DNA of 63,669 nucleotides, the filler included, from Hausera hauseri (lineage: Eukaryota): assembly GCA_046269625.1 (NCBI GenBank). It is 13 parts of 13 records of this genome, joined end to end, with 100 filler letters (N's around TTAATTAATTAA, not from the genome) between each part and the next. Parts side by side here need not be neighbours in the genome. Positions count along the whole stretch, not along the records: positions 29,329 to 34,436 come from JBJURY010333383.1; 12 more parts are not named here. The stretch is one strand, 5' to 3'. How positions within the stretch are numbered: the first letter of the stretch is position 1; each line of letters begins with the position of its first letter. Position numbers and translations under genes: made by a program. Below the pieces are notes generated by a model. It was not told the origin of the DNA, ran no database searches, and worked only from the letters and a program-made list of their open reading frames with translations. This document shows positions 11,750 to 46,513 of this stretch, piece after piece.

Positions 11750-11999
11750 NNNNNNNNNNNNNNNNNNNNNNNNNNNNNNNNNNNNNNNNNNNNTTAATTA
11801 ATTAANNNNNNNNNNNNNNNNNNNNNNNNNNNNNNNNNNNNNNNNNNNNGAGATGGAACGAAGATAATCTAAAAGACTTGCATGTTTAGTGTATTTATTA
11901 GTAAACTGTTATATAATAAAACTTTTATGTGTTTTGTGTTCTATAACAATAAAAACAACAAGTCACTGATTACAAGATTTATTATATTACAAATATCAT

Positions 12000-14267
12000 T
12001 GTCCATATTTAGTAAAGTCATTAATTACATTGTTCAGTTCCTTCTGACTGTTTTGCAATTCTTCTACCATTCCGATTATTTTACCGATCATTGGACTGAT
12101 ATTAATCAATCTGTTTCGTATAATTTCTAGCAATATCTCCGGTGCCACATACAGAAGATCGTCATTTGTAACGAACAAGTTTTGCACTTCATTCAATGCA
12201 CTGAATTTCTTTCAACTGTATCAATACTGAAACAGCAGTCATTCACATTTTGAAATAAGAAAGTTTTTGAGTCAGTTGCCTGAGACATTTTACATTCATC
12301 TGTTTTTAAGGCGTAGATTTATACTAGGCCACCATTATTAAAACAAAATTTTTTGCGCGGCAAATTCGAACTTTCATACCTACCTAAATCCTTGCAATAC
12401 ACAAACTTCACTTGCTTCTCATACACATGCACCACCCATCTTCGCCCTATTAACCGTGCGTGTGTAGCATTTTTCCTACCCCATGACTCATCCTCGAACC
12501 ACCGTTTATTTCCTTTCCTGAGGGGGGTTGATGCCATGCGCTCACTTCTATCTACTTATAGGTATTTTCATATACCTCTCGTGCTGGCGTGGTTTCGATA
12601 TAGAACATTGCTTCTTTAATCTTGTGACTATAGTGTTCAGTGGTTACTAAAATTCGGGTGCGATCTTTATCTGTTTCGAAATGTACATCTTGTATGTGCC
12701 GTTTGCTAAGTACATTCACTCCAGTGATCACTTGCTGGATTTTATCTTCCGGATCCTCATGTCCGATTACCATCCTTGTTGGGCTTTCTATAGTCATAGT
12801 TTCCATTCGTCTGGATTTCATTGGGGGATTGTCTGCTTCTTTCGAAAATTTGGGTGCCTTATTCGTCTTTTTGAATAGGTAGTCATGGAAGGCCATTTTC
12901 TTTTTTAATACTTGGATTGGGATTTCTAACCCTTTTTTTCTTCGGGATTTGTGGAACTTTAAATACTCCGTTTGTAGTTGTTTCCTGGGCTATTGTTTCA
13001 GGTTCTTTGTGACTGGCACTAGGTAATTCATCAGAAGCTGATTTCGGGATGTTTCCTTGGATAGTTATCCGAAGATCGTCTGGTTCCATAGGCTCGACCG
13101 TTCTACAGGGGATGTATGGACAATATTGTTTTTGGTATTTTCTATTTATGACTTCCGGATCTGACGAGCTTCGGAGATTTTGCCCAGGGTTATTAGGGAT
13201 TTATTCATTGTCCCATTTTAAACCCACATAAATGTCACGGAGGTATTGGGTACGTTGACTCGCCGTCAACATCTTGCTGATCTTAATATGGCCATTACTC
13301 ATGACATCCATGATTATTGGCATTTGATAGTCTCTTTCTCGCAATAATTTCTTGATTTGCTCGGCGACTACCGAGTGTGTCCTGATTTCTCTTATCCCTG
13401 CGAGGTTTGATTGGGGTATTTCCAATAATTCCATACTTTCAATTACGCGGTATCCGACAACGATATATCCATATGGGCAGTGTGCCAACTCAGTATATAC
13501 CAGTTTAGTATCTTTTCTGCTTTGGAGGGTTTCTTTGCGAATTCCCGTTAGATCAGTGTGTATCTCTGACAAGCCTTCTAGGACTGATAATCGTGCGGTA
13601 TATTTCCATGCCGTTGGTTTCTCTAATCGACACCTCCATCGGGATTTTTTTTGTGTCACTTCCTTCTCCGCAGTTGATGGCCCCAACCCTTGTATTTTTG
13701 CATCTGGAACTAATCTGTAAGATTGTAGAGATCTCTAGCTCTTCTTCCGAAGGTTTATGCTGGACTTCCAAGGGCGGCAGCAGAATATAGGATCGTTCCT
13801 CATAAGTTACTTCAAACATTATCTTGACGGGAAGGGCCGCTATCCGAAATTCCTTTTCAGAGTTGCAAGTCCTTAATACGTAGCTCGAGGGTGCTGAACC
13901 TGTACTCCATTCTTGACCTCTAAATCTGTAGTATATCTTGCCGTCGGCTAGATAAATGTAGATCTTTCGACTGAATTCAGTCTATCATTTGTCGGAGCGA
14001 GTATGCCTTGACGTTTTTATCTTCCCTCATAGCATAAAGATAAACGATCCTCTTTTCTATGACACCTTTTAGATCATTAGGAAGGGTGTGAACCTAATCG
14101 TATTTTATAGAAGACTTCCCCTGTAACTCATTGTGAATTTCTCTGTATATGGCGTTGGAATTTGGAAGGAGTACGATAGCATACTTCTGGAGGAATTCGT
14201 TGATACTATGTCGGCATTCCGGAGCGATTTCTCCTCTTGGTTCGTGGATGCTACGTCGTCCGGTCAT
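12000..14267 (-). pseudogene. Long novel accessory ORF of the complex Gypsy (copy A), fragmented
   Basis: The blocks HSINEFLQKY, YIYLADGKI, HCPYGYIVVGYRV, MLTASQRTQYLRDIYVGLKWDNE and TRILVTTEHYSHKIKEAMFY all match 21922-23740 in the same order. Confidence 0.75.
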
Positions 14268-14369
14268 GTTCTTGTTTTTATATCTGAAAAATAAACAGTA
14301 AGGGTTACTCTTACAATAAACGAGGTTTTTAAAATTAAACCAATGACAGAATAACCCATTCTGTAGTTG

Positions 14370-15520
14370 TCAGGTTATTCTATCATATGGGTCTACCGTG
14401 GGTTCCAACTCCTTTAGTTCCCATTCTGTGATTTTAGGACGCCTAGAATAGTAATTTTTTGTAGCCAACCGAACAATCGCAATTAATATAATGAGAACAA
14501 ACGTTGAGTATGATAATGGATATGATCGGTAAAGTGGTTAACCCCATTGGTGCTTGTGTGGTGACTGGAGTTGTGATTTCATCGTCTATGTGATTCATAT
14601 GCGATTCTGCACGAATTTAATCTAGAGTACGCAATGCAATTGTTTGATTTTGTTTATTCTCTCCGTATACTTGTATTATATAATCGTATTATGGTTTTAA
14701 CAAACTGCATTGTCTGGTAAGTGTCTTTAAGTAATGTTACGATTTGATTATTATACGTTGTTCGGCAGCTTATATGTATATCGTAATTTAGTTTTTCTTC
14801 TACAAAGAACAATTTTAAATTGATGTGCCGAATATTTAACAGGTATACTTTCTAATTCTCTTCTAGGCACACTGCTTGACGTAACGGTTTCCGTAAAGGT
14901 ACTAACTTGAGAGGTCGGCTTTTTGGTTGTTGTTTCTATTGAGATCCTCCATATTCTATTCTCTGGGTAATAAGTTCGCAAGTGCCTGCTTGATTTATCC
15001 GGCCGTACTTCATATGAGTCAAATTTTATTTTGAATTCTTGGTTTACGGGTAACTTACAACACGGGTGTTGCACAACGGCATGAACAGAACAGTATTCTA
15101 TTTTCGGGGGTTTTCCGTTTACTGCTTCGAAAACAATACTAATTTTTTGACTAATAGTTAATCCTGTTCGAGCATCTACTTGGATGAATAATTTATTTTG
15201 GCTTACGGAGATCACTTGGATATTTCCATTTAATAGCCTTATATTTAGGTTGGTGGATTGTAGCATTTCGTCAAGTTTTACTTCGAATCGTCTGGTCCAA
15301 GTGGAAATAATTAACTGAAGTTGTGGGTTTACTTCGATATAGACTTCTGATGAGTCTGGTAAGTACAATCGATAAGTAAGGATGTAGATGTGACCATAAT
15401 CTATGTCACAGCACTGTGTATAATCTCCGGGTGCAAAATCCGTTTTTCACTTCTTTTGTTGTTACTTTGTATAGTACAACTTGAAAATTTCCGAAATCAT
15501 GATTTGTCTCCACGTTTTAA
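14370..15520 (-). pseudogene. Type I membrane protein of the complex Gypsy (copy A)
   Basis: IEYCSV..LPVNQEFKIKFD..HLRTYYPENRIWRISIETTTKKP aligns with 21061-21816. It has a frameshifted TM segment (LPIISII / TFVLIILIAIVRL) and ends YDRIT-stop. Confidence 0.75.
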
Positions 15521-16157
15521 ATGCAACACACAGAGTCGGGCGAAAAGTAATGAGCCTTCATTGATTGTAACAAAATAGTGTCTTTTCGTTTTTGTATCTC
15601 TTCGGCCGGTGGTTTATTTTCTGTTATAATGGTTTTCGGCTTAAATCCGCTCTTCCGAATTCCATATACATCTCCTAGCGTAGTTTCATCGTCCCACCAC
15701 TGAGTTTGTGTTTTCGGGATATAAGAAGCAATTAACGACAGTGTTAAAACTATGTGAACGTATGAGATCGGTCTGGCAATTATTGAAGAAGTTTTTATCT
15801 CACGTTGTCGTAAATTGTAATGTTTGTTGGGTCGTATATCTGTTTTAACGACTCTCTGTACTGATATGACCTCTTCCTTTCCATTCTTGTTGATATACGC
15901 CGTAGTTGGCATAACTTTAGTAACTTCGTACGGTCCTCTGCATGTACGAGTCAGTTTTAACGACATAACTTTTTAGCTCCTGGGTAATGTACATAAACCC
16001 TATTTACTTGTTCTAAATCGTGTGACTTTGTTTTTTTATCATATTACTTTTTAAACTGTTCTTGATATTCTTGCGATAATTCTTTGTCAATTTCCCAACA
16101 TTTTCATAGTCGCGTCGTAGCACTTCTGCAAAATTCTGATCTAAATATTCGGGGTTA
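15517..16157 (-). pseudogene. Gypsy integrase C-terminus (GPY motif) running into a signal-peptide-like segment; complex Gypsy copy A
   Basis: RGPYEVTKV..ISVQRVVKT followed by ISYVHIVLTLSLIASYIPKTQTQW. Clearly homologous at DNA level to 33830-34436. Confidence 0.85.
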
Positions 16158-20753: not shown

Positions 20754-21816
20754 GCGGAGCTCATAGAAAATGTTGTAATTTGGATTTCGGACAAACCTAC
20801 CGATACAAATTTCAAATGTTCTATTATAATCAGCCCAGAACCCAAGCCTATATAATTACTGAATTCTTAATAAGAATGTCTCAACGAAATTACACGAATC
20901 GAGCCAAGACGGATGAGATAATCCTAAATACTGACCCATTAAAAGGCTGTTAGATTATAACATTATAGGGATTTCCAAGGACTTAAAGAACTAATGTATT
21001 CGAATTGAGACCAAAATAGAACTGCCAAGAGATAGGCAAATTCCTGTCCGATTTATACCAGTGAACGCCTCGGTTCCTATTCCGGAGTATTGCTATATCG
21101 CACGACGACGGCTTACTGTGTCATATAGATTACAATTAGGACAAAACTACCAGTTACAGTTCGATCTGTTCAACAATTACTTTAAAGAACCGAGTACTTA
21201 CTTACGAGGATACCGCCCAAAAATCGGAATATGGAAGCTTCCATTTCCAACCACTACGAGGAAACCATTCACTGTTCCAAGTACAACTCTCACTACTGCG
21301 ATCGTCACCTCTGATGAAATGCTCAAAAAAGAACTAGGAAGAATACTGGTTACGATTTTGGCAAAAAATAATAAAATTCTATTTTACGTTGAAGAAACGT
21401 TAAACCAAGACGTCAAAATTAAATGTCACACCCTGCAAACCAATCAAATTATAATCCTAAGAAAGAATAGTCAGGGAACTGAATGCAGGTCATTACGACA
21501 GCAGCATAATTATATAGACCGAATAACCGCAAAGGGTAGGAAATCTATGACTTTTGCAGTGCGAACCCCAAATAACAAAATTGAAATAATGCAGTATAAA
21601 GAACTTAGTACCCAAAATGCGTTTACCACGAGAAGTTCTATTGAGTCGAACAATTTACCGATAATATCTATATTTGGTTTGTCAGTTTTTGTTCTTGTCA
21701 CCTTATCGGCGATGATTTTTCTAGTTTCCAAAAATTGTAATAAACGCAGTAAAAATCGAAAGGGAAATAAACGGGTAAAAGGGTGCCGAGACGAACTTTA
21801 TGACAGCATAACTTGA
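20754..21816 (+). CDS. Type I membrane protein of the complex Gypsy (copy B), 5' part broken
   Basis: 251-aa ORF with a Thr-rich linker (PTTTRKPFTVPSTTLTT), a TM segment (LPIISIFGLSVFVLVTLSAMIFLV), a basic tail and terminal YDSIT. Homologous to 14370-15520. Confidence 0.8.
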
Positions 21817-21822
21817 CAATTA
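21814..21822 (+). promoter_or_regulatory. Candidate stop-codon readthrough signal TGA-CAA-TTA
   Basis: Matches the CARYYA leaky-stop context. Copy A has TGA-CAA-CTA at 14372-14364. Both copies stay open in frame into the next ORF. Confidence 0.65.
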
Positions 21823-21921
21823 CAGATCAGGTTATCCTATCATCAGACAGAGAAAATGTTTTGTTTCAAAACAATAATCTGTCTTAGGATTGACCTTTAT
21901 TTTTATTTTAGCAGAGTAAGT

Positions 21922-24379
21922 ATGGCCGAAAAGGCGAAGAATTCAGCCATCAACTCCAGTCATGACATCGACGATTTCCTGCAACAACATGTAACATTCT
22001 TCAAGCCACTATCGAAAAGCTTATATCGTCAAATTGGAGAAAATCTGAAAAACAAAACTTATGTCGAAATCGATCAGGAAAGTAAAACACCAAATGGGTT
22101 GAAATGGAGTTTAAAGGAAAATCGACTGATTAGGCTATACGCAATGCAAAGCCCCAGAGATGCACAAGAATACCTCTTGAGAGATATGATTCCACATGAA
22201 TCGACATATTAGCAATTGTACATACATGTCGCTGATGGAAAAATTCAACACAGGATCGTAGGACAATCCTGGAGCACACAAAACGGACAACAATGGAAAT
22301 TTAGCACTTATAAGTTATATTGCTATAGTCTTATGAACTATGCTTTGGAATTCAGAATCTCAGAACTTTCAACCAAACTCATGTTCGAAATGACCTGGCG
22401 AATAGAAGTAATAAAACCGCTACCACCATTATTATGTATACAAAAGCCTTCAGAAGATGAAATAGAACAGAATGGAGAATCTTACAGACTAGTTCCAGAC
22501 GGCAGAAATACTTGAATTTTAGCCGTGAACTATGGAGAAAAGGGTGATGGATGATATACACCGATTGAAGTCTCTATTCGAAGCACAAACGGAGAACTTA
22601 TAAAAAAACAATTGCACCTAAAACTAGGGTGAAGGATACCTTTCCCGATCTCACTGGAATTACAAAAATACAATTTGAAAAGGGAAAAGATTTCTTGGAA
22701 ATCCAGGAAGATATAAGCCATTGCTTATATGGATGCATTATAACCGGATTCCGAGTGTACGAAATGTTAAAAAGACTAGGAATTAGACAAGAGTATATAG
22801 TCAGAATTCATGAACTGAGTCGAAATCCAACAGTTGTAAGTCAGGTAGAAAATACCTTAATGAGAAAAAGAGAATGTCTCCTTCCGTCAGCGTCAAGTGA
22901 ATCACAGTTCAAAATGACGCAAGAAGCCATGAATGATGAGCAGTTCAAATTTCCTAAATTGATGTCAGCAAGTCAACAAACAAAGCTTATAAATGATATT
23001 TATGTCGCACTACGATGGGAATATGAGCGGAAGCTTAGGAACCCTACACAAAATGTGATGTCAGACAACAATCCACGAATTTTAATACAAAAATTCGGAA
23101 AAGGATTTAGCGAATACCCAATATATATACAAGTTGAGCCTCAAGGACACAACAGATTTCAAGTGACTGTTTACAACAACTCAGTTAGAACGACCAGCAA
23201 CCAACAAAACCATCGATTAGCCAAGCCCAAAATGAAATAGAAATGGTTTCCAAAAGAGCAACAGGAAATCTGAAATCGAGTATCAGAGAAGTTCCGAAAG
23301 GACAAAAGACGAAGACTTCCTTCTTGGAGTATATTAGCAAAAAGAGAAGTAAAACCAGTAAGAACCTGGGCGAAGAAATAAAATCATCTGCTGGCCGCCC
23401 CATGCTCGACGAACAAGTAAACAGATCCAAGGAAAAACCCAAAAGGAAGGAGCCCGAGAATTCCGAGGGGATAAAGACGAGAACTGCCGACACAAAGTCC
23501 CGTAAGACAGAAGTAAACATTCTTAGGAAGAATTAAGAAGAAGATGAACCGATCATAGTAACGGAATTTGGCCAAGTAAAGGAATATACCAGAATGCTCG
23601 TCATGGCCGAATATTACAGCAAAGGCATGATCAAGGAAGCCATATTTTACGTATCCACTATTCCTAGGCGAATCGTAAGTGGAAACGGATACGCCCGGGA
23701 GGACGCAATCATTGGCAAATACTTAGCTCCAATATTCTAGTTGAAAAACGGTACCAATAGACTAACCATTCCGTTAGATACCCAAGTCCGAATACAATTA
23801 AAAAGGCAATATAAGAAAACCGGGATACCAGACTTAGACCAACAAAAAATCGTCGAATGGACGTCATTTACAGTGTCATATGACCTCAAGAAAGGTTCTA
23901 TCGACCTAAAACAAAAACGACTATATGGATACCTATATCAAGATAAAAAAGGATTAGTATTTGAACGAATAGAAATTGACGAAAATCTCGTGGACATATA
24001 TGGAGGAGAAAAAGAAGATTGCCCTGTTTGTGACGCCGATCTCTATGAAGGATTTGTGGTGCTGGACAATAAAGACTGTACTCACAAGTACTGTCAATAC
24101 TCTTTAGAAACGTAGACCCTGAAGAATGGGAAAACTACCTGCCCTGTATGTAGAGCTGAAGCCACAAGACTGAGATACTACGCCAATGGAGAAAATAAAA
24201 GGGTAGTGGAGATATTGCCCCCAAAACCTACTACATCCTACTACTTTGAACCGCAATCACCACAAGATGAATCAGATTTGGAAGCGGACTTACGTGGACA
24301 AAAGAACCGGTTACGCGGCACCTCTTCTGACGCAATAGGCACATCCGAGAATGCCGTTCAGGGAGGAGAAATGTTGTAA
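21922..24379 (+). pseudogene. Long novel accessory ORF ending in a RING finger (copy B), fragmented
   Basis: ORF pieces at 21856-22515, 22629-23240, 23243-23536 and 23741-24115. The RING reads CPVC..CTHKYCQYS..(W to stop)..CPVC at 24020-24151. The frame ends in the PPT/LTR (QGGEML-stop). Confidence 0.75.
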
Positions 24380-24913
24380 AATGGCCGTAAAACGTGAACT
24401 GTTTATATGTAAATCAAAACGAAACTGAAAAACGAAACCGAAAGTAAAACTGAAACTAAATATTTGACATTAGAAATTGAGAATGAAAAATTATTATTAT
24501 CCAGAATTAACCACTGAATGTGCAGGAAATCTGTAAATATGAAAATAGTTTATTGGAAAGGAGAATTATTGATTATTCCTTAAATAACGGAAAAATTAAA
24601 TGAAAATTGTGGAAAATTGTTTGTAAATAATAATTGGAAAATTATTGCTTTTGACTGCCAACTATATAAGGCAGTACAAAATCAGTTAACACGACCATAG
24701 TGAACATTGTGAAGTTTGAGTTGAACATAAATTAGAAGTTGAATTGAATTGAGCTATTGGAACAGCTCCGTTATCCAGATATTCTTGAAGATTGAATTTG
24801 TTCGAGCTATTGAAGTGCTCTACGATTTGGATATTCCTCGAAGGATTCCGCAGTTGAATTATTGAAAACTTGAAGCAGTTATTACTTATTAATCCGACGA
24901 CTATATCGTCTGG
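24360..24913 (+). repeat. Polypurine tract plus start of the 3' LTR of the complex Gypsy
   Basis: AGGGAGGAGAAA is immediately followed by TGTTGTAAA at 24372. Short repeats (GAAACTGAAA; GGAAAATT) and a TATA box (TATATAAGG, about 24663) follow. Confidence 0.75.
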
Positions 24914-25013: not shown

Positions 25014-25763
25014 ATTCGATAAAATGCTTCGTAGAGATGGTTTGTGTTTAGCAACAATGGACCGTCCGCCACCGGTTTGACCGAATTCTCGTTTATTAAA
25101 ACCCAGATTTCTTGACAATAGTTCATCAAAGGCAAAACATGTAACATTATCGTGTAGTGTAAACGAAATACGACCATCAGAATTTAATTAAAATATCTTG
25201 AGAGCCAGTTTAGTTACTGCTTTGATGGTTACACACAATTCTGCTTCCGTTTCCGTAAGAAAACCCATTCCTGTTGTATGAGAGTAAAAGAGTGATTCAG
25301 TCTTTTGCCAATTCACTGTAATATCGGTGGTTTTCGCAGTGGAAAAGTTCAATTTTTCACTAATTATACTCTGCCCACCGAGCTGTCGGATAGTGATTTA
25401 AATTGTAATTCAATCGGATGTTTGTGTTTTAGCACCAATCGATTGTTTAAATGAAAAATATAAACCGGGAAATATTGTCGTTTGTAATTGCGAACGTAAA
25501 ATGTTCCATTAGTCTCGAACTAACTGCAAACGACTAGATGCAGGAGATTGTCTTACTAGGGTATAGTATATTCCACTGTTCTCATGTACTGTTATTGGTG
25601 AAAATGTAAACGTGAATTCCGCCAAAGCCACTTCCCAGGCTCCCTGGCGTAAGTCGAACGGCTGGTCCAACGCCATGGTAAACCGTTCAGCGGTATTGTT
25701 ATTGTTGTTGTTGTCATGTTCTGATAATCTGTTACTATCAAGTATCAAATATGTGCTAATCAC
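25014..25763 (-). pseudogene. Polinton/adintovirus minor capsid (penton-like) protein, partial
   Basis: YLILDSN..NTAERFTMALDQPFDLRQGAWEVALAEFTF is the typical N-terminal pattern of Polinton minor capsid proteins. Confidence 0.7.
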
Positions 25764-26810
25764 TCAATCTGTGATGCAAAAATCCAACTCGGTGTAGTGT
25801 ATCCGTGCCACTTGACGAGATATTGTTTATTCGAACCTTTGCCGCGTGAACGTAGAATTCCCTGAATACGATACACATCAGGTTTTTCCGGTAGTACTTG
25901 CAGTTCCTGTTCGTAAAATTTGCCACGTATTTCGTCACCATTTTCATTTTCTAAAACGTACATAACCGGACTTTGCTTTGTGTTGATTGTTAAAATTCGG
26001 AAAACCTCATCGTTCCAGTTTTGATTGAAATTCTTAGTGAATGGCGTCGTACTGAGCTTGGAAATACGTACATAATCACCGATTTTATATTTTTGGTGAC
26101 GCTTAATCGCCTGTCGTCTTCGTTGTGTTGTTCGGTTGTTTTGATAAAGCCACATGTTTAAATCATCGATTACGTCAACCGGCTGTAATCCATTGATAAC
26201 ACGGCGTGTCGAATGATTGTATGAATTAATAATATCCGGTAGTACATCTATTCAGCGTTTGTTGCCTTGCTTCGTAAAGAATTTGGTTAGGCGACCGCAC
26301 AATGTTCGATTAAATCATTCAACGAGTGCAGCCTGGTATTGGGAAAACACCGAGTAGTGGTTTACGCCGAACTGTTTCAAGACTGTTGCAATGTGGGCGT
26401 TGTAAAATTCCTTACCCAAATCCGTTTGTAAGTTCTTCGGTTGTTGTTGTTGTTGCATCAGCGTCTGAACAGCGTCGGCAATCTCTTTACAAGATTTAGA
26501 TTTCACGGCAATTGCACGTGCAAAACGACTAAACACAACAAAACATGTGAGCACGTACCGATACCCATCATTGATGTTAGCGTACGGAATCATTTCCATC
26601 AGATCCATTTGCAATACATTATTTACACCGGCAGCACGATATGCACGAGTTGGAAACCGCCTTCTTATCGGTTTGTTTAGTCTGTATGCTAACTGTTTCC
26701 CGAACCAATGTTGGGTCTGTTACCGAGTCTGTTTGACGGTCTTTGCCAGTTTGTCGACGCCAGTATAGCCGACGGGATGACGCGGGTCGAGCCACACATC
26801 GCCCATCGTT
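25760..26810 (-). pseudogene. Polinton retroviral-like (rve) integrase with C-terminal chromodomain
   Basis: DPRHPVGYTGVDKL, QMDLMEM..YRYVLTC..FSRFA, LQTDLGKEFYN, YKIGDYVRISK..FTKNFNQNWNDEVF and QYLVKWHGY. Confidence 0.92.
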
Positions 26811-26962
26811 GTAGTCGTCGATTGTGTCGGTTTTGCTGATGCTTGCATTACAACAATGAGAACGAAACGTAAATGAAATATTCGGTAAACTGGGACAAAA
26901 AGATGAAAACCATGCACCCATATCGCCGAATCATCACATACTTACCGTCATTGTTTATACTA

Positions 26963-27346
26963 TCATGTTGTTGCAGAACCAATGAGTCCACCCACTAATG
27001 ACGCGACAATCGGTAGAATTGTGCCAAGGAATCTACCGTCTTGCTGGTACATAACCTCTCGTTTCAGTCGTTTACTGCGGGTGTTGGCAAGGCCAATGAG
27101 TGGTTTTCGATACTTTAGTAAATTCCGCTTTCCACTACCAATGTCAATGTGACCCACGACAATATTGTATAAAATTTCCATCAAATCGTCTATTACAAAC
27201 TGTGGGAATGATCGCAGCATGTGTCGCTTATGTCTCGTAGGTGCCTTGAGCAAACCAATAAAGTACGGTTGACTACGTTTGAATCGCATGCTTTTTTGTG
27301 GACGTATTGATGTTGATGAGATGTATTTATTTATAACCGTTGCCAC
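26963..27346 (-). CDS. Polinton/adintovirus small conserved protein with amphipathic C-terminus (pX-like)
   Basis: EILYNIVVGHI..QQDGRFLGTILPIVASLVGGLIG is a variant of the GGFL..L..L pattern usually found next to the Polinton ATPase. Confidence 0.65.
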   Translation of the reverse strand: MATVINKYISSTSIRPQKSMRFKRSQPYFIGLLKAPTRHKRHMLRSFPQFVIDDLMEILYNIVVGHIDIGSGKRNLLKYRKPLIGLANTRSKRLKREVMYQQDGRFLGTILPIVASLVGGLIGSATT

Positions 27347-27507
27347 TTTGACGGTAATTTGCGTCTACTTGCTGCTGCTGTTGTTTGAAGCACAGAATTG
27401 ATTAATCGCTTCACTGTAGCAGTTCGTTTTGATACACGTTACTTTCCGGACACCCGCTTGGTAGTAGATTGTTTACGTTTAACAAATGTTTTTCGGAAAT
27501 TCTTCAT
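27331..27507 (-). pseudogene. Small basic Lys/Arg-rich Polinton ORF with one internal stop
   Basis: MKNFRKTFVKRKQSTTKRVSGK*RVSKRTATVKRL..RRKLPSKWQRL. Confidence 0.35.
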
Positions 27508-27544
27508 TTTTTATCATAATCATGTAGTCGATTTTCGAATTTGT

Positions 27545-28170
27545 TTATATAACACATACACCACCTTTCTGATTGAAAATATCTGTGCGTATACGCATGT
27601 CATCGGGATACTGTTGTGTAAAGTCAATGAGCAAGTATCCGTGTGGTTCGGTCGTAGCATCATGATATGCATCTATCAAGTAGGCCTGATTGTGAAGAAA
27701 TGCTTGTCGTGCAACATAATCAATGATAGTTTGATCACGGCGATTTCTGAACAACACCAAATAGTGTACGTTTAGATTTCTTGTTCGATGCTGCCCACCC
27801 TGATGGAATATTTTTTGCGTAATGAAAATAACCGTTACGCCACGGTGTCGTGCAATCTTCGTGAACAGGTTGTTGAAATCCTATTGTTTCGAGGCTTCTT
27901 GAAATAAATCGTCAATGACAATAACGTCACCGCTGCGTAATCGTTCAGACCAGTTCTTATCAGACCCATCAATTACCGTTATCGATTTTAGTTTACAAAA
28001 TTCCCCATGTGTCAAACCGGACTCACCATCATCGCAAACACCCTGATGCTAGTAAATGTGATTGTACCGCGGTAAATGGAACATGTCACGGTAGTTCTTC
28101 AATAGTTTACACACAAAGTGTGTTTTGCCAGTTTCACTGGGGCCTACAATCTGGAAAATAGCATCATTCT
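27545..28170 (-). pseudogene. A32/FtsK-like DNA packaging ATPase of a Polinton
   Basis: Walker A in IVGPSETGKTHFV, Walker B in VIVIDDL, plus VLFRNRRD..DAYHDATTEPHGYLLIDF. Frameshifted. Confidence 0.92.
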
Positions 28171-28276
28171 GCAGCTTTATCAAATAATAATACAACCTTT
28201 CCTCATCACATGATTTGTTTATAATCATTTTACACTCGCGCATATAAATAGTTATAGTATAAACACTGTTTCCATA

Positions 28277-29080
28277 ATGACAGCTAATATCAATTATCTC
28301 GGACATGTTGCTAGGTGGTGTGAAATTAACACCGTACCTTTTATTCCGTGGAAGCCGCCGGATTTTACATGTATCCTATTTCAATCGGGAAAGTGTCGTA
28401 TTATGGGCTGTTGCAAACTAATCACATCTGACAACAGTAAACTGCTGCCATTCGGAATTGTCATTGACAAAATCCAATCAATAACGGTAAAGACTCAGTT
28501 AGACTACCACCAAACAATTAATCTGTACAAATTATCAATGGCCGCTGCTACTGAATGTACGTATGAAGCCGAATTGTTTCCTGCACTGAGATTGACATCG
28601 TTTTGCCCACTTTGTGTCAATGCGTTTAGCAGTGGAAAAACTGTTGTACTCGGTATATGGATAGTGGACTATGAACCGATTATTAATCAAATTAAAAATC
28701 ACATAAATACTTTACTGAATCAAAATAATGTACATGGCACAACAACAACAAACTGTAAATACCATTCCCATGCCCATTCAGACATTACTGCCATGGAAGA
28801 TGACGCCAAAACAATTCTACTCAATGATGACAATGATGCCAATGATGATGATGATGAAAGTTCAGATTGGTCGTGGTTGTTTGGCTACAACAAAAAGGAC
28901 GATTCTAATGTCAAACTGCTAGAACCACTTGTCCAACAATTAGAAAAGCAAGGTGATTGTCTGCAGGCCGATTGTCTGGAAACAAAGCAGGAACTTGCTC
29001 GGAAAGCAGCAGCAAAACCGACGTTAAAAAGGCAAAATGCAATGATTGGTGGACTACGTAAACGAAAATCAAAATCGTAA
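28277..29080 (+). CDS. Divergent TATA-binding-protein-like protein with an acidic/basic C-terminal extension
   Basis: Two TBP-like repeats: TCILFQSGKCRIMG, and IQSITV..INLYKL..YEAELFPALRL..VNAFSSGKTVVLG. Compare canonical LIFSSGKMVCTG and YEPELFPGL..IFVSGKVVLTG. Confidence 0.8.
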   Translation: MTANINYLGHVARWCEINTVPFIPWKPPDFTCILFQSGKCRIMGCCKLITSDNSKLLPFGIVIDKIQSITVKTQLDYHQTINLYKLSMAAATECTYEAELFPALRLTSFCPLCVNAFSSGKTVVLGIWIVDYEPIINQIKNHINTLLNQNNVHGTTTTNCKYHSHAHSDITAMEDDAKTILLNDDNDANDDDDESSDWSWLFGYNKKDDSNVKLLEPLVQQLEKQGDCLQADCLETKQELARKAAAKPTLKRQNAMIGGLRKRKSKS

Positions 29081-29328
29081 GCGTCGCGGCAAACACAGAT
29101 ATTTTTACCGAAACGAATTTTTCGCAAGTACGAAATGCATTTTCTGCAAATGCCCGTACTGATTTCATTGAATGATCCCGTGTCTCTATGTGTACCCAAG
29201 TACAACTTTCGTGTAAAACGGATTTCGGNNNNNNNNNNNNNNNNNNNNNNNNNNNNNNNNNNNNNNNNNNNNTTAATTAATTAANNNNNNNNNNNNNNNN
29301 NNNNNNNNNNNNNNNNNNNNNNNNNNNN

Positions 29329-30262
29329 CCCCAATAATTCCCATGAGAGATGGAATTTTCGGTCGAGTTACGGGAGAGGTATTATTAACTTATGAATGCG
29401 AAAAGAGAGATGTACCCATCAGCGTTGAAGAAAAACGTTGCATTCAGGAACTTCCCGTTATTTACCAAACTACTCCAAGGTTAGCTACACCACTGACAAG
29501 AGTGTTATTGGATAACGCTACCCAACCAACCATCCTTAAAAATTGTAAAGCAAGCTTAGGAGAATTCATGTTTAGACATAGCGAGACGGACTGGGTCAGC
29601 TTACCAAATGGGAGTATTATTGCTGCTCCAAGTAAATTGACAGGAACAAATCTCGCGAAAGGAAATACCGACGATAAATTTCAAGACACCTTATCGAAAG
29701 GCATATACGACAACGAACACACGAGCTAAATCGAGCCATAGCATCAGTAGTAGATGATACACGATACCAGGCTAAATGGGAATCTTTACTTGGCGTAAAT
29801 CATTATCAGCGAGTAACCACAGAAATACTCTACAAAATTTGGGGAAAATTCTTAATTTTTGAACAAGCCGCATCCGGATTTTTAGCGATATATTTTTTGA
29901 TACCAGCTGTAATTAATGGGTATGAGATATTTACGTTGACTGGATTTTCTTGCAAAATACTGACTGCGATCGTAACACCCTTTGAAAGATTCTTAAAGGC
30001 ATACAAAGAAAACAGATGGAAATCGGACGTAGAACGTCATGTCGGATATTACAATCGTAAAGGAAGAAGAAGACCTATATTTCTGCGGAAGCGGAAATTT
30101 ACAAAACATAATACGCGAAGAAATGATTCAGACGATGACGAGCCAAAGGGAGGAGAAGTATTTTCGGGAATAAATAAATATAAAGCCTATTCGGTTATTA
30201 AAGCGCCACTACCTATGTTGCCTCCTACTGCTACAACTTATGAGGACTGCGACAAACGATAG
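29329..30262 (+). pseudogene. Class III (chuvirus/Jingchuvirales G-like) fusion glycoprotein, C-terminal part; env-like
   Basis: GIFGRVTGEVLLTYEC..RCIQELPVIY..LATPLTRVL..C..F..W, then a TM segment and the INGYEIFTLTGFSCKILTAI block that resembles chuvirus G tails. One frameshift. Confidence 0.75.
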
Positions 30263-30532
30263 GTGAGTTCCTATCAGACAGAGGTTTATAAAAGAACGAT
30301 TAATGTAGAAGACCCTTATGAAGGAACGAAACGATAGGGGATCCTGCGGAAAATTTGTTACCGACAATCTACCGACGGGCCAAAGATGCTATAGTCTCCT
30401 AGAGAGCCCAAAAATATAGAGATTAGGTCAAAGGTATGGGACAATCCAAGGTTGAAAACTTTTTAAAATACCGAATTACATACTAACAATCGAGAACCAT
30501 TAATTAGTACACACGAGACGGCAGAATTCTAT

Positions 30533-33500
30533 ATGGAAAACAATGAATTATATCCAAATGAAGAATTGAGACATTTATCGGAGAACATGGTATTCTCCCC
30601 AGAGATCCGAATAAATGGACATAAAATATCGGCAGTAGAACGTTCGAAAGATACATTGAAATGCTTGGGTACAGTAATAGAAGGAAGGCCTTTCGCCAAA
30701 ATCATTATTAAAGATTGGGAAGTCTACGCATTAATCGATACAGGATCCGAGATGTCTTACATAAAAAACGATTCAATTCCTAAAACGCTGAGAGGACAAT
30801 TGTACCCACCGTCCACAAAAGATCCACGAAGTACAGGAGCTTTTGGCCAAATGTCTAAACCTATGTTTAAATGGAATCCAGAAGTTCAAATAGTTGGATA
30901 ATTTTTCCACCACGAATTTGCAGTTATGGAACCATTAACCGATGACATAATTTTAGGATGTGATCTACTGAAAAGACTACCGAATATAGCAGTTGACTTG
31001 CAAACAGGGAAATTGATAGAAATCAGAACAAATAAAGGCGTGAAAAATGCTAAAGATAGAAAATTTGGAGAGGTCTGGATACCAGTAGATGAAGATATTC
31101 CACCAAGAACAGAGTTAATAATTTACGCACAAATTCAGCAAGATGACGATCAACCAGTATACTTTGAACCAAGAGAGACATTAAATCCAAATATAATACT
31201 TAGTAACATACTGACAAGAGTACATTCCGGTCGTGTGCCAATAAGAATAGCTTACAATGCACCAATCCCCATTAAACTCTATGCTTATACTACTCTAGGA
31301 GATACGTATACAGTGTCATCAATAACTATTCAAGAGAAACCTTACAAGTATGCCGAAGTTCCACCTCATGTCGAAACTAAGTTTTCTCCCGAATCTTATT
31401 GTCGATTTTATGAATTATTATTTTACTAAAAATCGATCATCGTTAAAGACGACGAAGATATCGGTAGGACAAAAACATTAAAGCTAACTATTCCTCTAAA
31501 TAAAAAGCCAGGTTCGAATGAAGAAATAGACATTGAGGATCAAAAGACGCCGAAATGGTATCCTCCACCACATTCGTTAAGACCTGAGATAACAAAGGAA
31601 GTCGAACGAATACTTAAAGCCGATATAATCAGGCCCAGTTACAGATCTTGGTATTCATCAATCCTCGTGGTTAAAAAGAAAGGTACCACAAAACATCGAT
31701 TTTGTTTTGACTACAGAGCTTTAAACAATCTTATGATGAAAGACTCTTTCCCATTGCCATCAGTAAAAGAAGCTTTAGATAGACTCTCAGGCGCAAAATG
31801 GTTTATTACTCTGGACTTACAATCCGGATATTGGCAAGTGGAAATTGAAGATGAAGACCGATATAAGACAGCATTTAAGACGCACGATGGTGTATATGAA
31901 TTTAACGTCATGCCGTTCGGTATTACTACCAGGCCAGCTATATTTAAAGGATGATGAATAAGATGTTAATGGGACTGGATCAAGCTTTTGCGTACTTAGA
32001 CGACGTAATTATAGCATCAAAAACGGAAGAAAAACACCTAAAGCACATTGAACACACTAATGCGTCTGGAGCAAGCCGGATTGAAATTAAACCCAAAGAA
32101 ATGCAAGTGGGCACAATTGGTAGTATACTACCTTGGCCATATAGTTGGAGAAGGAGGATCGAAACCGGATAAATCATTATTAAGTAAAATATCAGATTGC
32201 ATGGACCCGCAAAACCAAAAAGAATTAAGGCACTGGCTAGTATTATGCGGTTATTATGCAAACTATGGGTCAGATAATTCAAAGATAAACACACCCCTAT
32301 ATTGTTTACTTAAAAAAGGAATAAAATAGAAATGGACGGACGTCGAACAAAAAGCTTTTGGTGAGATGAAGAAGATATTAACAAGCGAACCCGTTTTACG
32401 ATATCCAGATTTTAGCTTACCTTTCATAATCAAGACAGACGCCAGTAAGGAAGGCATCGGATAAGAATTAGCGCAGAAGAGAGATGATGAAGAATTAGAA
32501 CGCCCGATTGCTTATGGAGGACGATCCTTGAAGAAGGCCGAGAGAAACTACTCTGTCACCGAGTTGGAAACTCTAGCCGCAAAAGAAGCACTTCGCCACA
32601 TCAACGTTTATGTATACGGGCAGAAAATTATAATCGTTACCGATCACAAGGCCGTTACGACTTTGAAAGGCCGGGCAAATAATCCGACATGCAGACTTAA
32701 CAGACGGATTGAAGAAATATCAAGATACAATACCAAATTTCAATATAAGCCAGGGAATAAACATGTAGACGCGGACGTATTATCGAGATAAAAGACCAAA
32801 ACCAGCGCAATCACTGTAATGCAAAAGAGTCAACTTGAAGAAATAATAGACCGACAACGCGCTTTAACAATGGATAAGGTCATAAAAATTTCAAGGGAAC
32901 AAAGAAAGGATAAGGTCATTCAGCAGATTATAGAATTTGCTAAGAAGGATGTCATACTGAAAGGACGACAGCTTAAGAAGCATTTACGCAGACACGGACA
33001 TAAATACTGCATCTTAAACGACAAGAATAATGAGAATATTTTATATTACGAAAGGAAAGGAAGAAAATTGATAGTTATTCCAAAAGGGTTATGAACCGAA
33101 GTATTGATGTCAGAATACAATTCATATTTAGCCGGATATATGTCCTGGAAGAAAACGTTATAGAAAATAATGAGCAAATATTTTTGGCCTAATATGTATA
33201 TTGACGTGAAGAATTAAGTACATGCATGAGAAGTATGTGCAACTAAACTAAAGAAGACGAAAAATTACATAACTGAATTAAAACCAATTGATGAAGCCGA
33301 TAGGCCCATGCAAGCCATGTCGATGGATATTGTAGGACCTCTCCTTACAAACCGTAAAAATAACAAGTATATCTTGACGTGTATCGATCGACTAACTCAT
33401 TTTGTCGAATTTATAGCATTAATCGATCAAAGGGCTGAAACCTTAGCAGAAGCCGTAGTAAGAAGACTTATTTACCGATACGGACCCCCAGTTAAGGTGC

Positions 33501-34140
33501 TTACAGATCGAGGAAGAAATTTCAGCAGTAAACTTTTTGTGAAGATTTCCAAAATACTTGAAATCGAAAGGTTGACGACTACTGCTTATCATCCTTAATG
33601 CAATGGAATGGTCGAGCAAATGAACGCTACCGTCAAACGTGTATTATCTACGGTAGTAGCCAAAGATCAGAAAGATTGGGATGAGTTTTTAGAAGGAATA
33701 CAATTTGCAATTAATACTACACCACACCCGGCGACAGGATTCACACCAATTTTATGATGTGTGGACGTAAAGCCGTATTACCCACAGATTTAGGAATGAC
33801 ACCATATACGGTCAATCTTGAGGACTTAGAACAAAATTTTGCAGAAGTGTTACAGACACGATTACGAAAATGTTGGGAGATCTCTAAGGAGTTATCTCAA
33901 GAATATCAAGAGCAGTTTAAAAGATAACATGACAAGAATGCAAAACCGCACGATTTAGAACAAGGAAATTGGGTTTATGTACATTATCCAGTAGCTAAAA
34001 AAGGTACCTCATTAAAATTAATTCGTACCGGCAGAGAACCGTACGAAGTCACCAGGGTTACGCCAACTACAGTGTATATCAACAAAAATGAAAAGAAAGA
34101 AGTGGTATCAATACAAAGAGTTGTAAAGACGGAGATACGG
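30533..34140 (+). mobile_element. Ty3/Gypsy pol (PR-RT-RNaseH-IN), decayed; complex Gypsy copy C
   Basis: ALIDTGSEMSYI; RFCFDYRALN; LDLQSGYWQV..KTAF..VMPFG; YLDD; TDASKEGIG..NYSVTELE..VTDHKA; SMDIVGPL..LTDRGRNF..TTAYHP. Confidence 0.96.
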
Positions 34141-34436
34141 CCCAATAATTTACGCCAACGTGAAGTAAAGACTTCTTCAATAATTGCTAGACTAATATCG
34201 TACGTTCAGAGAGTTTTGGAATTATCGCTAATTGCTTTTTGCATTTTAAGAACACAAGCGGAATGGAAGCATAAAGAACCTGTCGTAAAAGATAATTACA
34301 GAATTAAGAAAAATGAGGCGAGGTGGGAGACTCTTAAAACGGGGAAGACACTGACAGTGGAAGAAAAGCAAAGATAAGAAGATGTCAGATTATTATAGTC
34401 AATAATAATAAACTATTATTCGCCCAACTCCACATG
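34140..34436 (+). CDS. In-frame post-integrase signal-peptide-like segment and start of the membrane protein
   Basis: LRQREVKTSSIIARLISYVQRVLELSLIAFCILRTQAEW matches copy A. Confidence 0.7.
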
Positions 34437-34559
34437 NNNNNNNNNNNNNNNNNNNNNNNNNNNNNNNNNNNNNNNNNNNNTTAATTAATTAANNNNNNNN
34501 NNNNNNNNNNNNNNNNNNNNNNNNNNNNNNNNNNNNTTCCCGCTTATTAGTTTTAATCT

Positions 34560-36400
34560 CTATACTTATAATATATGGTTGTTTTCGTCTTAGGTCTCTT
34601 CCAAGAGCTTAAAAATTTTCGTGCGGCTGAAAAGCAGAATTCGTCATCTTTTGTTAATGGCAAGAGTAATTGTGCACATTCTATTCGACTAGTTAATGGT
34701 AGTGACTCATATTGTCGTAAGGCATTTCATACTTCATTAGATGCTGAATCAGACATTTGTAATTTAGCTTCAATTACTTTAGTTATTGATTCTAGAGGTT
34801 CATCGTATATTATAGAACCTGGTGGTATATTCATTTCCGGAATATCTTTTGGATTTTCGATTGATGATAGTGTAGTTCCAGGATACTGGAAAATATCCGG
34901 TTTAGGTATGAGTTCATCGTCTTCTAAGATTTCAAATATTTCATCATCATCAACTACTTGTAGTTCCTTCTTGGATTTACTTGGCTGTATTGAATCTCAG
35001 ATACTTTCGAATAATGTCGGTTGTTGGAGTGGAACCTTTGGTTGTAAAAGTGGTGCAACTAATCTATCGTTATAAGGTTCTATCCATTCTCCAGTCGGTC
35101 TTGTTCTGACAAGCTCATGTGAATATTCATCAGAGTCTATATCAGGACGTCTTTGAGCAATTGCTTCGATTACTGGAATTACTCTTGCTTCCTCAGTTTT
35201 CTCGAGTTTTTGTATTGCTGGAAAAGCTACTCGTAATGTCTTCTGACTCTCTATTATCCATGGTATATTGTATTCTACTCGCACAGTTTTTAGGTATTCA
35301 TCTATGCATCTTTGTGCCATAATTTCTGAATTATGACCATGGTATAGATCCAAACCTTTGTAGGTTCTGTTAGTCTGTTCCAGGTCGTAGATGGCGGTTA
35401 GATTTACTGGATTTATTCTCAATGTATTTAATAGTTCCGGTAACTGGCGTCCGATGATTACTTTTCCTGGTAAGTATTTGTTCATGAATTTACTTACTGA
35501 CTCTTGTCGTTGAGGATTAAACCGTCTACTGTATTCAGTGTACTTTGTAGTATCTGGTATGTTTGGATACACATGAATATTAAGGATTGTTTTACCTCCT
35601 AGGTTTTTGGCAATTACTTGGGTAAATCCTTTCTGGTTTCTTTTGGTTATGCATCAGCAGGCAAGAATTATTTCACTATTTTGTGTTACAGGTTTATCCA
35701 TGGTTATCTTCGGTGTTTCCTTAAGCCATTGTATTAAGCATATAGGATAATTATCTAAAGGTTCAATTTCACAATCTCCTTCATAAGGATAATTAGGAAA
35801 TATCATAGTTTCTTTTGAAATAATTACTGTTTTATTGTTGATTTGTAACCGTGCCTCTCCTTAGTTAGTAATTACAGCACATGGCGGATCGTTTCTTTTA
35901 AACTGAATATCTGTTTCCTTCAAATGCAGTTGTTTAAATAACCATGGTAAATTTATTTCAACGATAAGTTTTCCACAGAGCAGTTGTCTAAGGTTTTCAT
36001 AACATTTTTCTTTTTCTAGGTGTACATTGTCTAGCTCAATTATCAAATCACCTTCGATGTTCTCTATTCTTATTCGATTAATTTCTATCTCCTGCTCATC
36101 TTCGATAGTTTTTTCTACTTCTACAAAGGTTAAAAGTAAATTTTTAATTTCTTTAGTTTCTGTCCATAAAATATATGGGCGTGTATTATTTTGGATGTCT
36201 GGTACCCTTCGTTCTGCTTAATCCAAGTAATTTCTAGTTATGAAGGGCTTTTCCCAAATGGAAATGTTGGATGATGGTTTGGATCAACTTGGTAATGTTC
36301 TACTATTGGTTTTTCCATTAATAAGCCCGTGAAGGTTGGTTTAGTTTGTTCATTGAAAGTTACCGAACGACGGGGTGAGACGTTCCTTTCGTCGTTACTA
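34560..36400 (-). pseudogene. Long unknown ORF (about 600 codons, broken) downstream of gag
   Basis: Pieces at 35861-36046 and 34997-35572 plus an acidic continuation to about 34560. No protease motif was seen. Confidence 0.5.
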
Positions 36401-36499
36401 TTTTTTTATTATCTGAAGAGTTTCCTTTTTCTTTTGTGGAACTGTTATAAGATGGCATTGTTGAGTCCAACTTTCTTTCATTTAGGTACTTAGAATATT

Positions 36500-38155
36500 C
36501 CGCTGTCGTATTTCTACCGTATCTGGATGGGGAAATATTTCTATTTATCGGTGAGTCATTTGGTCTGAAACTATAATCTGCGTTTGATTAGTGCATAAAG
36601 GTGTTTCCTCTATTCGGGTTGCCATTCGTCGGGTATATTCTATCAGCTTATTAATACTATTTGCTGTGTGGAATTTGACTCCTTCTTGTAAAGGTGGTAA
36701 AAGTCCAAGTACAAATTGTTTCATGATCATGGCGCCAAAAGCGTGTGCGCTCGGGCCAAAGTATCTATTCATTGCTGTTTTAAATCTATTAATATATGTA
36801 AATACTTCTTTATTTGGTTTTTGTTTACAATTTTGGAATTTTAAATATCGACTATCTTGTATGTTTACATTTTAATTTTGTAAAATCCTTTCTCGATGTG
36901 CTCAAGTCTCGTCTGGTCGTCTAAGTAGGCAATTTATTGCCATTCTCAAATCATTAGTCACATGCACTGGTTAGAGAGATATTTTCTTTGCGTCATCCCA
37001 ATGCATAGCTGTTGCCAGTGAACCATATCAATCTAAGAAATCCTCGAAGTCTGATACTCGCCCTTCATATGGTTGAAGGGGAGAAATCATTTGGTATTTC
37101 TCTTCTCTTCTTCTTTCATTGAAATTTAATAAGCCGTAACCGGCATTGTTATTTGGATCACAGTTGCGCTCATCCTGGTGAGCCAACGGGTCTTGGTTAT
37201 TCCTTAGCGGCTCAATGTTGTTGCTATCGATGTCCGAAGTTTCATAAGATATGGAACTCTGTTCCGTGGAAAACTCTGGTGATTGTATTCCTTCCTGCCG
37301 TCGAGTTATCATTTCCTCTGTCCATACTTGTTCGAGACGTTCATTTAATTGATTTATACCTCGGGTTAACGTTTCTATTTGATTTCTGGTATGATTATTT
37401 TCCACTTGTATTTGCTCTCTTTCTCGCATACTATAATTGAAACTTGATTTTGTATTTCATTTAATCGTCGACTAGCTTGTCTTTTTTTGTTATCAATCTG
37501 CTCTCTATTTCTATGTACTGTGGCTATATTATCAACAGTCTGTTGTTGTAAATTATGTATGTCTGGAATGGGTATTTATATTTTGTGCAAGTTGGTCAGT
37601 TCTCTTTTCCAATTCGTTTAAGCTTATGTTATTATCGTTCACTTTCTGTTTTATTTGTGCAATTCTCTCTTCGACTCTATCCAATTTTATACAATTATTC
37701 GTGGCATTTGTCACTATTGTGTCATCTACTCCTTGTCAAGGTATATCTTGTATTTCTCTAATTAACTGTCGAATACTATCGTCCGTCTGATTCTGTTTTA
37801 TTCTTAAATAATTTACGTTTACTTGATGTATTTCGTATCGTGTTCGGCAGTCTAATTCTTGATTAATTATTCTCTGTGTTAACTGTCTTGGATTAGGCTT
37901 GTTGCGATATTGTCCTCTGAGTGGCCTTCGTCGCCCACTAACTCCTCGTACCCACTGGTGTTGTACTGGAGCGGGATATAATTGTAGTGAATCAATGTCA
38001 ATTAATGATTCTGGAGTTGATATTGTACTTAAGGTGTCTGAACTGTTAGCAGAACTAGTGTTTTCTTCGTTTGAATCGATTTCATTAATTCCTGTTAATT
38101 GATTCTGTGTTAATCGTCCTCGGGATAGGGTATTGTATTGGTGTCCCTGAACCAT
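36500..38155 (-). pseudogene. Retrotransposon gag with a long coiled-coil N-terminal extension
   Basis: ISPLQPYEGRVSDFEDFL..AMHWDD, YINRFKTAM..KQFVLGLLPPLQEGV (capsid-like). Upstream Gln/Arg/Glu-rich helical ORFs. Confidence 0.65.
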
Positions 38156-38224
38156 TGTTATTAAAAAAAATTACGTTATTATCCATCTTATTATATGTAT
38201 ATTGTACAAATTTTTTCTATGGAT

Positions 38225-38345
38225 AATTCACACAGTACATTTCGATAACGTAGAATCTTTAGGAACACAGTTTTTACAATGAATAATGTGTCCGCATGGT
38301 AGGTAAATTGAATTTGATTGATTTTTCTACAAATTAAACAGGTAC
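38225..38345 (-). pseudogene. C3HC4 RING finger (IAP-type) remnant upstream of gag
   Basis: CLIC-(frameshift)-NSIYLPCGHIIHCKNCVPKDSTLSKCTV-stop; the stop replaces the last Cys. Confidence 0.7.
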
Positions 38346-38828
38346 AAATTATACGGCCAACATATGTACATCTTTTTCCACTTCCTCCTCTTTTTCCTTT
38401 AATATTGAAACCAAGTGTTGAATTCTTTGATAATAGTCGTCATCCGTTAATTGCATTTGGTATATATTGGTAATCATTTTTGGTAATGCTTCATATTCAG
38501 CCTTCTAGTCAATTTTAATAGCAATCATCGTGAGGTCTTTGGTGTATCCTAGCTCGATTACTTTATTGAGTACGGGATTATTATACAGTTTGTATCATCC
38601 ACAAATTATTTCAGGCGGTTGATTCTTTATTGTAAGTAATTGGGTTGTCCTATTGCTGAGATTGGTCAAAGTCATACTGTTGGTGTCCAATAATTCTATA
38701 AACAAATTTGTTCAATTTTATTACAATANNNNNNNNNNNNNNNNNNNNNNNNNNNNNNNNNNNNNNNNNNNNTTAATTAATTAANNNNNNNNNNNNNNNN
38801 NNNNNNNNNNNNNNNNNNNNNNNNNNNN

Positions 38829-39110
38829 TAGGGACAGGTACTTCTTCATCGTTGTTGGAATTATGGATAGTTCCCAGTGTGGAAATTCGTTTATGGCCAA
38901 TTTCAGGATATGGTGACAGTCATAACCTTGAAAGTTATAAAATATCACCAGTAGGAATGGCCGAACACGCCTTGCAAAATTGCATGCATTACGTGCTGAT
39001 CCCAGGTATCGTCCGGTAAAGTAGTCGTGATCACGTACAAGCCGTTCCTGTAGATCTAACCGCAATATTTTGTGGCACAGGCAACATTCGTCAGTGTGGT
39101 GACCACAACG
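38829..39110 (-). pseudogene. pPolB fragment (endonuclease VII-like region and start of exonuclease)
   Basis: CCLCHK..VRDHDYFTGRYLGSARNACN..IFYNFQGYDCHHIL. Confidence 0.85.
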
Positions 39111-42923: not shown

Positions 42924-43111
42924 GTACGATCTGTTAAATCGTACTTGACGGTTTTAATTGCATCTGTAATAAATCCATATAATCCAGTAATAGATTCAAT
43001 TCACAAGAAAAAAATCCAGATTATAAGACGCTTTTATTATAAGACGTTGCTGAATAAATAAGCTGCTGAATTAATTCAGAATTCAATTACCAATAACCAA
43101 AAATCAATTAT

Positions 43112-44668: not shown

Positions 44669-44789
44669 TGGCTAAGTTGCAGAAGTGGTGATTCTATATT
44701 AGACGAAAACAACGAAGAAATATAATAAACGTTTAATGCAGACTTTGTTTCCACTACTCAACAAGACCGTTAAAGCATGAAGGGTAAGC

Positions 44790-45583: not shown

Positions 45584-45593
45584 ATGATGATGC

Positions 45594-45654
<61 letters not shown>

Positions 45655-46512: not shown

Positions 46513-46513
46513 T

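Follow-up and report, generated by a model that had tools for sequence, protein, structure and literature searches.

Introduction

Dezordi et al. 2020 reportedly described mosquito Anakin (BEL/Pao) elements that carry a chuvirus-like glycoprotein. In Anakin elements, env lies after pol. A different order is found in the planarian Burro elements (Burro / GYPSM1), giant Gypsy-like elements with an internal region of up to 25 kb and a cargo of MATH, BIR, BCL2 and ankyrin domains, in which an in-frame env lies between gag and pol (PMC6431247, in the portions available). Decayed Burro fragments with stops and frameshifts are described in the same portions, in D. japonica too (PMC6431247). Ty3/gypsy elements of GAG-ENV-POL order with an env of the gB/chuvirus type are known from nematodes, bryozoans and flatworms, and 114 arthropod elements place chuvirus-like glycoproteins beside a gypsy pol; according to the same accessible sections, the GAG-ENV-POL elements are not monophyletic (PMC13524379). 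Earlier work in arthropods saw no clear Gypsy capture of a chuvirus glycoprotein, as far as its available text goes (PMC10084718).

Here we analysed a contig in which a chuvirus-like env precedes a Gypsy pol, an identity and gene order that we regard as nearly certain. The contig very probably represents a decayed fragment of a many-copy Burro-type Ty3/gypsy retroelement with its chuvirus-like fusion gene ahead of pol, likely read as one polyprotein.

Results

Contigs and features

The window, meaning the whole stretch of DNA analysed (63,669 nt), consists of 13 contigs of 4-7 kb joined by linkers of the form 100-base N-TTAATTAATTAA-N. The env/pol contig (29329-34436, 5.1 kb) starts inside env and ends just past the integrase. 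Both of its ends fall in coding sequence, and gag, the fusion-loop half of env, the LTRs and the primer site lie outside it. This copy is decayed, with one frameshift in env, four stops in the linker behind env, and 11 stops and three frameshifts in pol. The features identified here and in two related contigs were as follows.

29329..29729, + strand: C-terminal half of the Env ectodomain, piece 1, truncated by the contig start, frameshift near 29710 (PF24664)
29708..30259, + strand: Env piece 2, with stalk, WGKF, TM (~29849-29938), second hydrophobic stretch and basic cytoplasmic segment (PF24664)
30260..30532, + strand: env-protease linker, in one frame with pol and the env tail; probably coding sequence across the family; stops at 30260, 30335, 30392 and 30464
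30533..31020, + strand: aspartyl protease, DTG at 30737, one in-frame stop (RVP E 9e-4; tblastx to the L001 protease)
31060..31340, + strand: PR-RT insert, likely the dUTPase-like domain described for Burro (colinear with relatives; name from the available part of PMC6431247)
31559..32790, + strand: reverse transcriptase and RNase H, interrupted by stops and by two frameshifts (RVT_1 E 8e-17; RT_RNaseH E 2e-21)
33071..34140, + strand: integrase (zinc finger, core, C-terminal module), disrupted by stops and by a frameshift near 33751 (rve E 2e-14; tblastn, tblastx)
34141..34436, + strand: beginning of a second membrane protein in continuation of the integrase frame, with a signal-like hydrophobic segment at 34192-34248; cut by the contig end (hydropathy 1.77; tblastx to a sister contig)
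11850..16157, - strand: sister copy on another contig, with integrase end, membrane protein (signal-like segment at 15783, TM near 14516), accessory ORFs and an exonuclease-like ORF at 13204-13734 (nucleotide match and tblastx)
20754..24913, + strand: diverged third copy of the 3' region, with membrane protein (TM at 21670), accessory ORFs and a RING-like motif near 24020-24100 (tblastx)

Envelope gene and intact relatives

Both env pieces matched PF24664 (Monjiviricetes_fusion) above its curated cut-off of 27 bits, the first at 29331-29726 (31.9 bits, E 4.6e-8, profile positions 366-483 of 653) and the second at 29678-30259 (34.8 bits, E 6.1e-9, profile positions 517-605 of 653). The profile search for a class III fusogen family thus returned a match, and the chuvirus-like fusion glycoprotein proposed in an earlier note on this DNA is borne out as to family; judged by sequence family, env is of the gB/chuvirus type. 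The motifs named in that note were present in the place given and on the strand of the protease (DTG at 30737), with GEV starting at 29373, QELPV at 29445, PLTRVL at 29490, INGY at 29912 and TGFS at 29939; WGKF starts at 29840. The claimed TM segment (~29849-29938) aligned with clear TMs of relatives, but its hydropathy was borderline (best 19-mer 1.61). Piece 1 was 27-36% identical to the Env of Env-Pol polyproteins and keeps the conserved Cys together with the GEV/ELPV/R motifs. A PDB sequence search with the env alignment returned nothing below E 0.77, and a word-index search of the env piece against longer proteins found no relative among 162 candidates.

With env piece 1, phmmer gave 24 matches, and 18 of these were scanned; 15 contained PF24664, while three were unrelated repeat proteins. 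The long relatives scored 259-320 bits to PF24664. Eight of the 15 had a protease behind env in the same protein, the other seven being fragments or ending soon after env, and a search with the env region of P0127 found env and protease together in all eight proteins (8/8). We also observed that P0127 (HBK71150.1), an Env-Pol polyprotein, has been deposited under a Flavobacteriaceae MAG as a hypothetical protein; its source is likely a eukaryotic contig in that MAG bin, and a contig scan with P0127 found no locus.

The order in the intact relatives was Gag, internal signal, Env ectodomain, TM, protease(s), RT, RNase H, integrase, second signal, Ig/FN3-like domains, TM and tail, so that four hydrophobic segments occupy alternating positions of a single ORF. 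Relative L001 contains one ORF of 3,655 aa with Gag zinc knuckles, a ubiquitin-like domain, Env, two proteases, RT, RNase H, IN and a second membrane protein; this ORF is colinear with our contig (E 1e-154) and is followed at 11375-13473 by two accessory ORFs, a 222-aa unnamed protein and a 434-aa RNase_T-like exonuclease (E 9e-4). Gag was present upstream of env in P0141, P0143 and L001. A weak Bcl-2 match preceded env in P0136, and P0149 (4,844 aa) carried ankyrin repeats. At least two DTG-type motifs occurred in 12 of 15 relatives checked, with P0149, P0141, P0126 and P0140 having 3 to 8 DTG-type protease motifs, some of them 3' of the integrase.

Pol region

The RVP, RVT_1, RT_RNaseH and rve domains were all found 3' of env, in agreement with the earlier claim that env lies upstream of a Gypsy pol. 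Their order, PR-RT-RNase H-IN with a Gypsy-type RT, is that of Ty3/gypsy (Metaviridae), and the named matches of pol were Gypsy pols (17.6, Ty3 and 412 types). The protease match to RVP (20 bits) was slightly below the cut-off of 20.7, and the RT motif YLDD at 31993 sits in another frame. The PR-RT insert (31060..31340) had no Pfam match.

The env-pol junction in sister copies

A public sequencing run (X1) yielded 17,508 contigs on the 5.1-kb contig, of which 8,044 were less than 90% alike, and they covered 30 of 30 bins; X1 is one run that may be the source sample, and it demonstrates many copies, not an independent host. Pieces diverged by 13-20% tile 30214-30932, from the env tail to the protease, and diverged contigs extend across both the env stop and the linker (records 30214-30529 and 30254-30463). 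The same env-protease junction was therefore found in other copies, as the earlier note had suggested looking for, and env directly upstream of pol is common to several of them. No single X1 sister contig reaches from the env TM to the protease active site.

These contigs also bear on whether the junction arose by chance rearrangement, nested insertion or misassembly of two elements. Such an origin would be compatible with an assembly made of small, repeat-rich contigs and with the dip of summed sister depth in the linker. It is contradicted by the diverged contigs across the env stop and linker, and by the intact relatives of the same order, which are the best matches for env and pol alike. 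We consider a rearrangement or misassembly highly improbable and already largely refuted.

Reading frame of the env-protease linker

The env tail and pol share an identical reading frame. Reading in the env frame, one meets the first stop at 30260; the protease stretch then begins with an in-frame ATG at 30533, which matches the distance of about 270 bp that the earlier note gave between env and the protease ORF. To compare the linker among copies we used 622 contigs of X1 over 30170-30600. At each of the four linker stop codons, 64-95% of the sister-contig depth differed inside the codon, none of the listed sister readings at these positions was a stop, and no indel reached the 50% threshold in the interval. 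A total of 48 majority differences were found, and 28 of the 40 listed fell on third codon positions of the env/pol frame. Within the linker the figure was 21 of 29 (P=2e-5), or 18 of 24 when the stop codons were excluded (P 4e-5). Since most of the sisters lack these stops and the differences are biased to third positions, we infer that the linker evolved as coding sequence in the env/pol frame.

A single Env-Pol frame is thus strongly favoured for the family, as a statistical result for the family and not one read in a single intact copy. The distance noted earlier stands, but as a gap it does not, the 270 bp being likely coding sequence rather than spacer. The notion of env as a separate ORF ending before the protease is likewise abandoned in favour of one likely Env-Pol frame. 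Were env a separate ORF ending at 30260, with pol expressed on its own from the ATG at 30533 through splicing or read-through, one could account for that in-frame ATG and for the four stops among 69 linker codons, where the rate of decay in pol predicts 0.65 (P=0.004), and the WGKF-to-DTG distance of 299 aa is above that of the shortest relatives (range 131-669). In most sister contigs, however, every one of the four stop codons carries a difference, the differences are third-position biased in the env/pol frame and the relatives are single ORFs, leaving separate ORFs improbable. The stretch from the env stop to the protease site, at about 160 codons, would be too short for a usual gag.

Coding sequence after the integrase

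Sister contigs showed at least 4 kb more coding sequence after the integrase. The sister copy at 11850-16157 was 79% identical in nucleotides to 33826-34240 over 424 nt, and its integrase is followed by an ectodomain, a stalk rich in Thr and a TM, with more ORFs behind. The third copy (20754..24913) was colinear with it (tblastx E 4e-65); its RING-like motif near 24020-24100 is weak. The accessory ORF at 13204-13734 matched the exonuclease-like ORF of L001 weakly (23% over 121 aa, pairwise E 6e-4), and the same exonuclease-like match failed for the third copy (E 0.04).

Among relatives running well past the integrase, 7 of 8 had both signal-like and TM segments there, several of the seven being close kin, whereas of 53 other Gypsy pols whose tails reach at least 150 aa, 2 had any hydrophobic segment. 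The exception was P0157, with a 451-aa tail and no hydrophobic segment. A motif like C-x-x-L-x-P-x-T-x-Y was observed in the tails of 6 of the 7. A profile built on the relatives' tails picked the third copy among 78 frames (E 5e-5, next best 0.67), a match that comes partly from TM and stalk composition.

The Pfam search gave no name for the post-integrase membrane pieces of the window. Atlas features pointed to fibronectin type III (0.87), which we treat as a lead, all atlas matches to the window's post-integrase ORF being below 0.9. The single-sequence model of this ORF was unusable (pLDDT 43), and the model of P0151 was weak (pLDDT 41). Foldseek gave mostly uninformative beta-galactosidase rows along with weak monobody (FN3) rows, and VIA-align of residues 308-396 of the weak model returned generic Ig/FN3-like sandwiches (best Z 8.6, rmsd 2.7, 83 aligned). 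From these models the post-integrase ectodomain is likely of FN3 nature. We also considered a tandem or circular permutation of one env and rejected it; the post-integrase protein does not belong to PF24664 and is unlike the N-halves of the relatives' env. Summed sister-contig depth at 34288-34436 was about 13 in the last bin versus more than 1,000 in the preceding bin; the second membrane protein may change quickly from copy to copy, contig depth being no proof of this.

Other contigs of the window

Two Gypsy copies that lack env, 4517-11749 (-) and 45760-49936 (RVT_1 E 2e-19), are related to each other and distant from the element at 29329-34436. The decayed contig 34537-38728 (-) contained a RING-like motif (E 3e-4), a coiled-coil and a stretch resembling a gag capsid (Retrotrans_gag E 0.02), followed, at the place expected for protease or env, by a long unnamed ORF; there was no match to Burro-type relatives. 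By eye, 25014-29228 is Polinton-like, with a packaging-ATPase-like frame and an rve integrase (-, E 2e-10); a TBP-like ORF (28214-29080, E 3e-8) lies on the strand opposite to this integrase. Contigs 1-4416 and 50037-54111 are related (tblastx E 7e-136) and share a YLDxNNLYGWAM motif, which we take to be that of a type B DNA polymerase; 38829-45659 has a weak relationship to 50037-54111. A fragment of a Tc1-type transposase was observed at 56952-57398 (HTH_Tnp_Tc3_2, E 1e-12).

Placement among Gypsy elements

The initial pol search covered proteins up to 993 aa. The best 7 pol scores among 129 candidates belonged to Burro-type polyproteins, with 34-40% identity in pol. Both pol trees were quick searches. 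One of them (26 hand-picked of the 129 rows) placed the element beside the Burro-type clade with a support of 78 and a long branch, and the other placed it in a group of support 93 that also holds six other Gypsy pols. The relatives are tied to Burro by size, domains and by-eye match, not by name. P0149, at 4,844 aa, resembles Burro ORF1 of 4,873 aa as described in the available portions of PMC6431247, and the Env N-halves (domain I-II) of the relatives match by eye the Smed_errantivirus_1-6 / Platyhelminthes_C1a rows in the part of the PMC13524379 supplement at hand.

Since env leads to the same Burro-type relatives as pol does, the capture appears old and shared, not particular to this element; independence from the Anakin (BEL/Pao) capture, as the earlier note had it, is putative. 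A capture of its own, separate from the Burro-type elements and with the same layout reached by convergence, would be consistent with the long branch and weak support in the pol trees and with GAG-ENV-POL elements not being monophyletic (PMC13524379, in its available sections). Against convergence, env, pol, the PR-RT insert, the post-integrase membrane protein and the exonuclease-like ORF are all held in common and in the same order, and we judge it very improbable. The element is a divergent member, or a weakly supported sister, of the known Burro-type lineage and not a new capture. Two other identities were examined and set aside: an Anakin-type (BEL/Pao) element, as env lies upstream and pol matches Gypsy proteins, and Troyka, for which no env link was seen in the accessible text of PMC12440569.

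Discussion

The alternating hydrophobic segments of the relatives suggest how such a polyprotein could be arranged, in a scheme drawn from general knowledge of viral polyproteins. The four segments would thread the chain through the ER membrane, leaving Gag and Pol cytosolic and the two ectodomains luminal. Signal 1 would send Env into the ER lumen and the Env TM would return Pol to the cytosol; signal 2 would then send the Ig/FN3-like domains into the lumen, and the last TM would leave a cytosolic tail. Cleavage of the polyprotein into its parts would then fall to signal peptidase together with the protease of the element. This topology, predicted from sequence alone, is probable, and it presupposes that the second hydrophobic stretch behind the env TM does not cross the membrane. 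Particles would bud at the ER membrane carrying a trimeric class III fusogen, and a putative enveloped spread from cell to cell can be put forward tentatively. The second membrane protein would probably act in attachment or in placing assembly; for attachment specifically, we regard the role as putative and somewhat doubtful. The copy at 29329-34436 is itself dead, and none of the proposed products is made from it.

A more far-reaching reading is that a separate sister lineage of Burro represents a two-glycoprotein enveloped retrovirus of invertebrates, in which Pol is preceded by a class III fusogen and the integrase is followed by an Ig/fibronectin-like attachment protein, with accessory exonuclease-like and RING genes aimed at the host. 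We hold this to be unlikely as it stands. If true, one four-pass polyprotein would yield both proteins, dividing binding from fusion the way herpes- and paramyxoviruses do. Retained by elements whose pols are only about 35-40% alike, the second membrane protein would make an unusual partner in attachment for the fusogen of a retroelement. It is the addition for which the literature searched contained no description, the figures and some of the supplement of PMC13524379 being places that could bear on it; the Burro review, in its available portions, does not mention such a protein (PMC6431247).

The element resembles Anakin (BEL/Pao) in having a chuvirus-like glycoprotein in an LTR retroelement, and differs by its Ty3/gypsy pol and upstream env from the BEL/Pao pol and downstream env of Anakin as described. 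The bryozoan and nematode env rows in the accessible part of the PMC13524379 supplement look unlike the present env by eye, and for the non-canonical nematode ERVs (via PMC13524379) the nematode env rows are unlike the present lineage by the same kind of comparison. The GAG-ENV-POL 'ancient errantiviruses' (Smed_errantivirus_1-6) share with it a Ty3/gypsy pol, an env of gB/chuvirus type before pol and a multicopy state, as given in the available sections of PMC13524379, whereas the copy here is decayed and not intact. The main text of that paper, in the portion available, makes no mention of a fused or in-frame single-ORF polyprotein, fibronectin or accessory genes.

Likeness to Burro/GYPSM1 extends furthest, with a mononegavirus-like fusion Env in frame between gag and pol in Burro and an Env-Pol frame here, and with a PR-RT insert (dUTPase-like in Burro and likely so here), accessory ORFs, very many copies and decayed fragments in both (PMC6431247, as far as available). 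Differences from the Burro-type relatives include the pol identity of 34-40%, the long branch, and one protease between env and RT in place of the two or more DTG-type motifs of 12 of 15 relatives; unlike Burro, the stretch between env and RT has no ankyrin insert here. The order of env before pol, which the earlier note called unusual, is known in kind, an env of chuvirus type having already been published in this position in Burro and in GAG-ENV-POL Gypsy elements (PMC6431247 and PMC13524379, in the parts available), and to these the contig adds one divergent and very abundant family.
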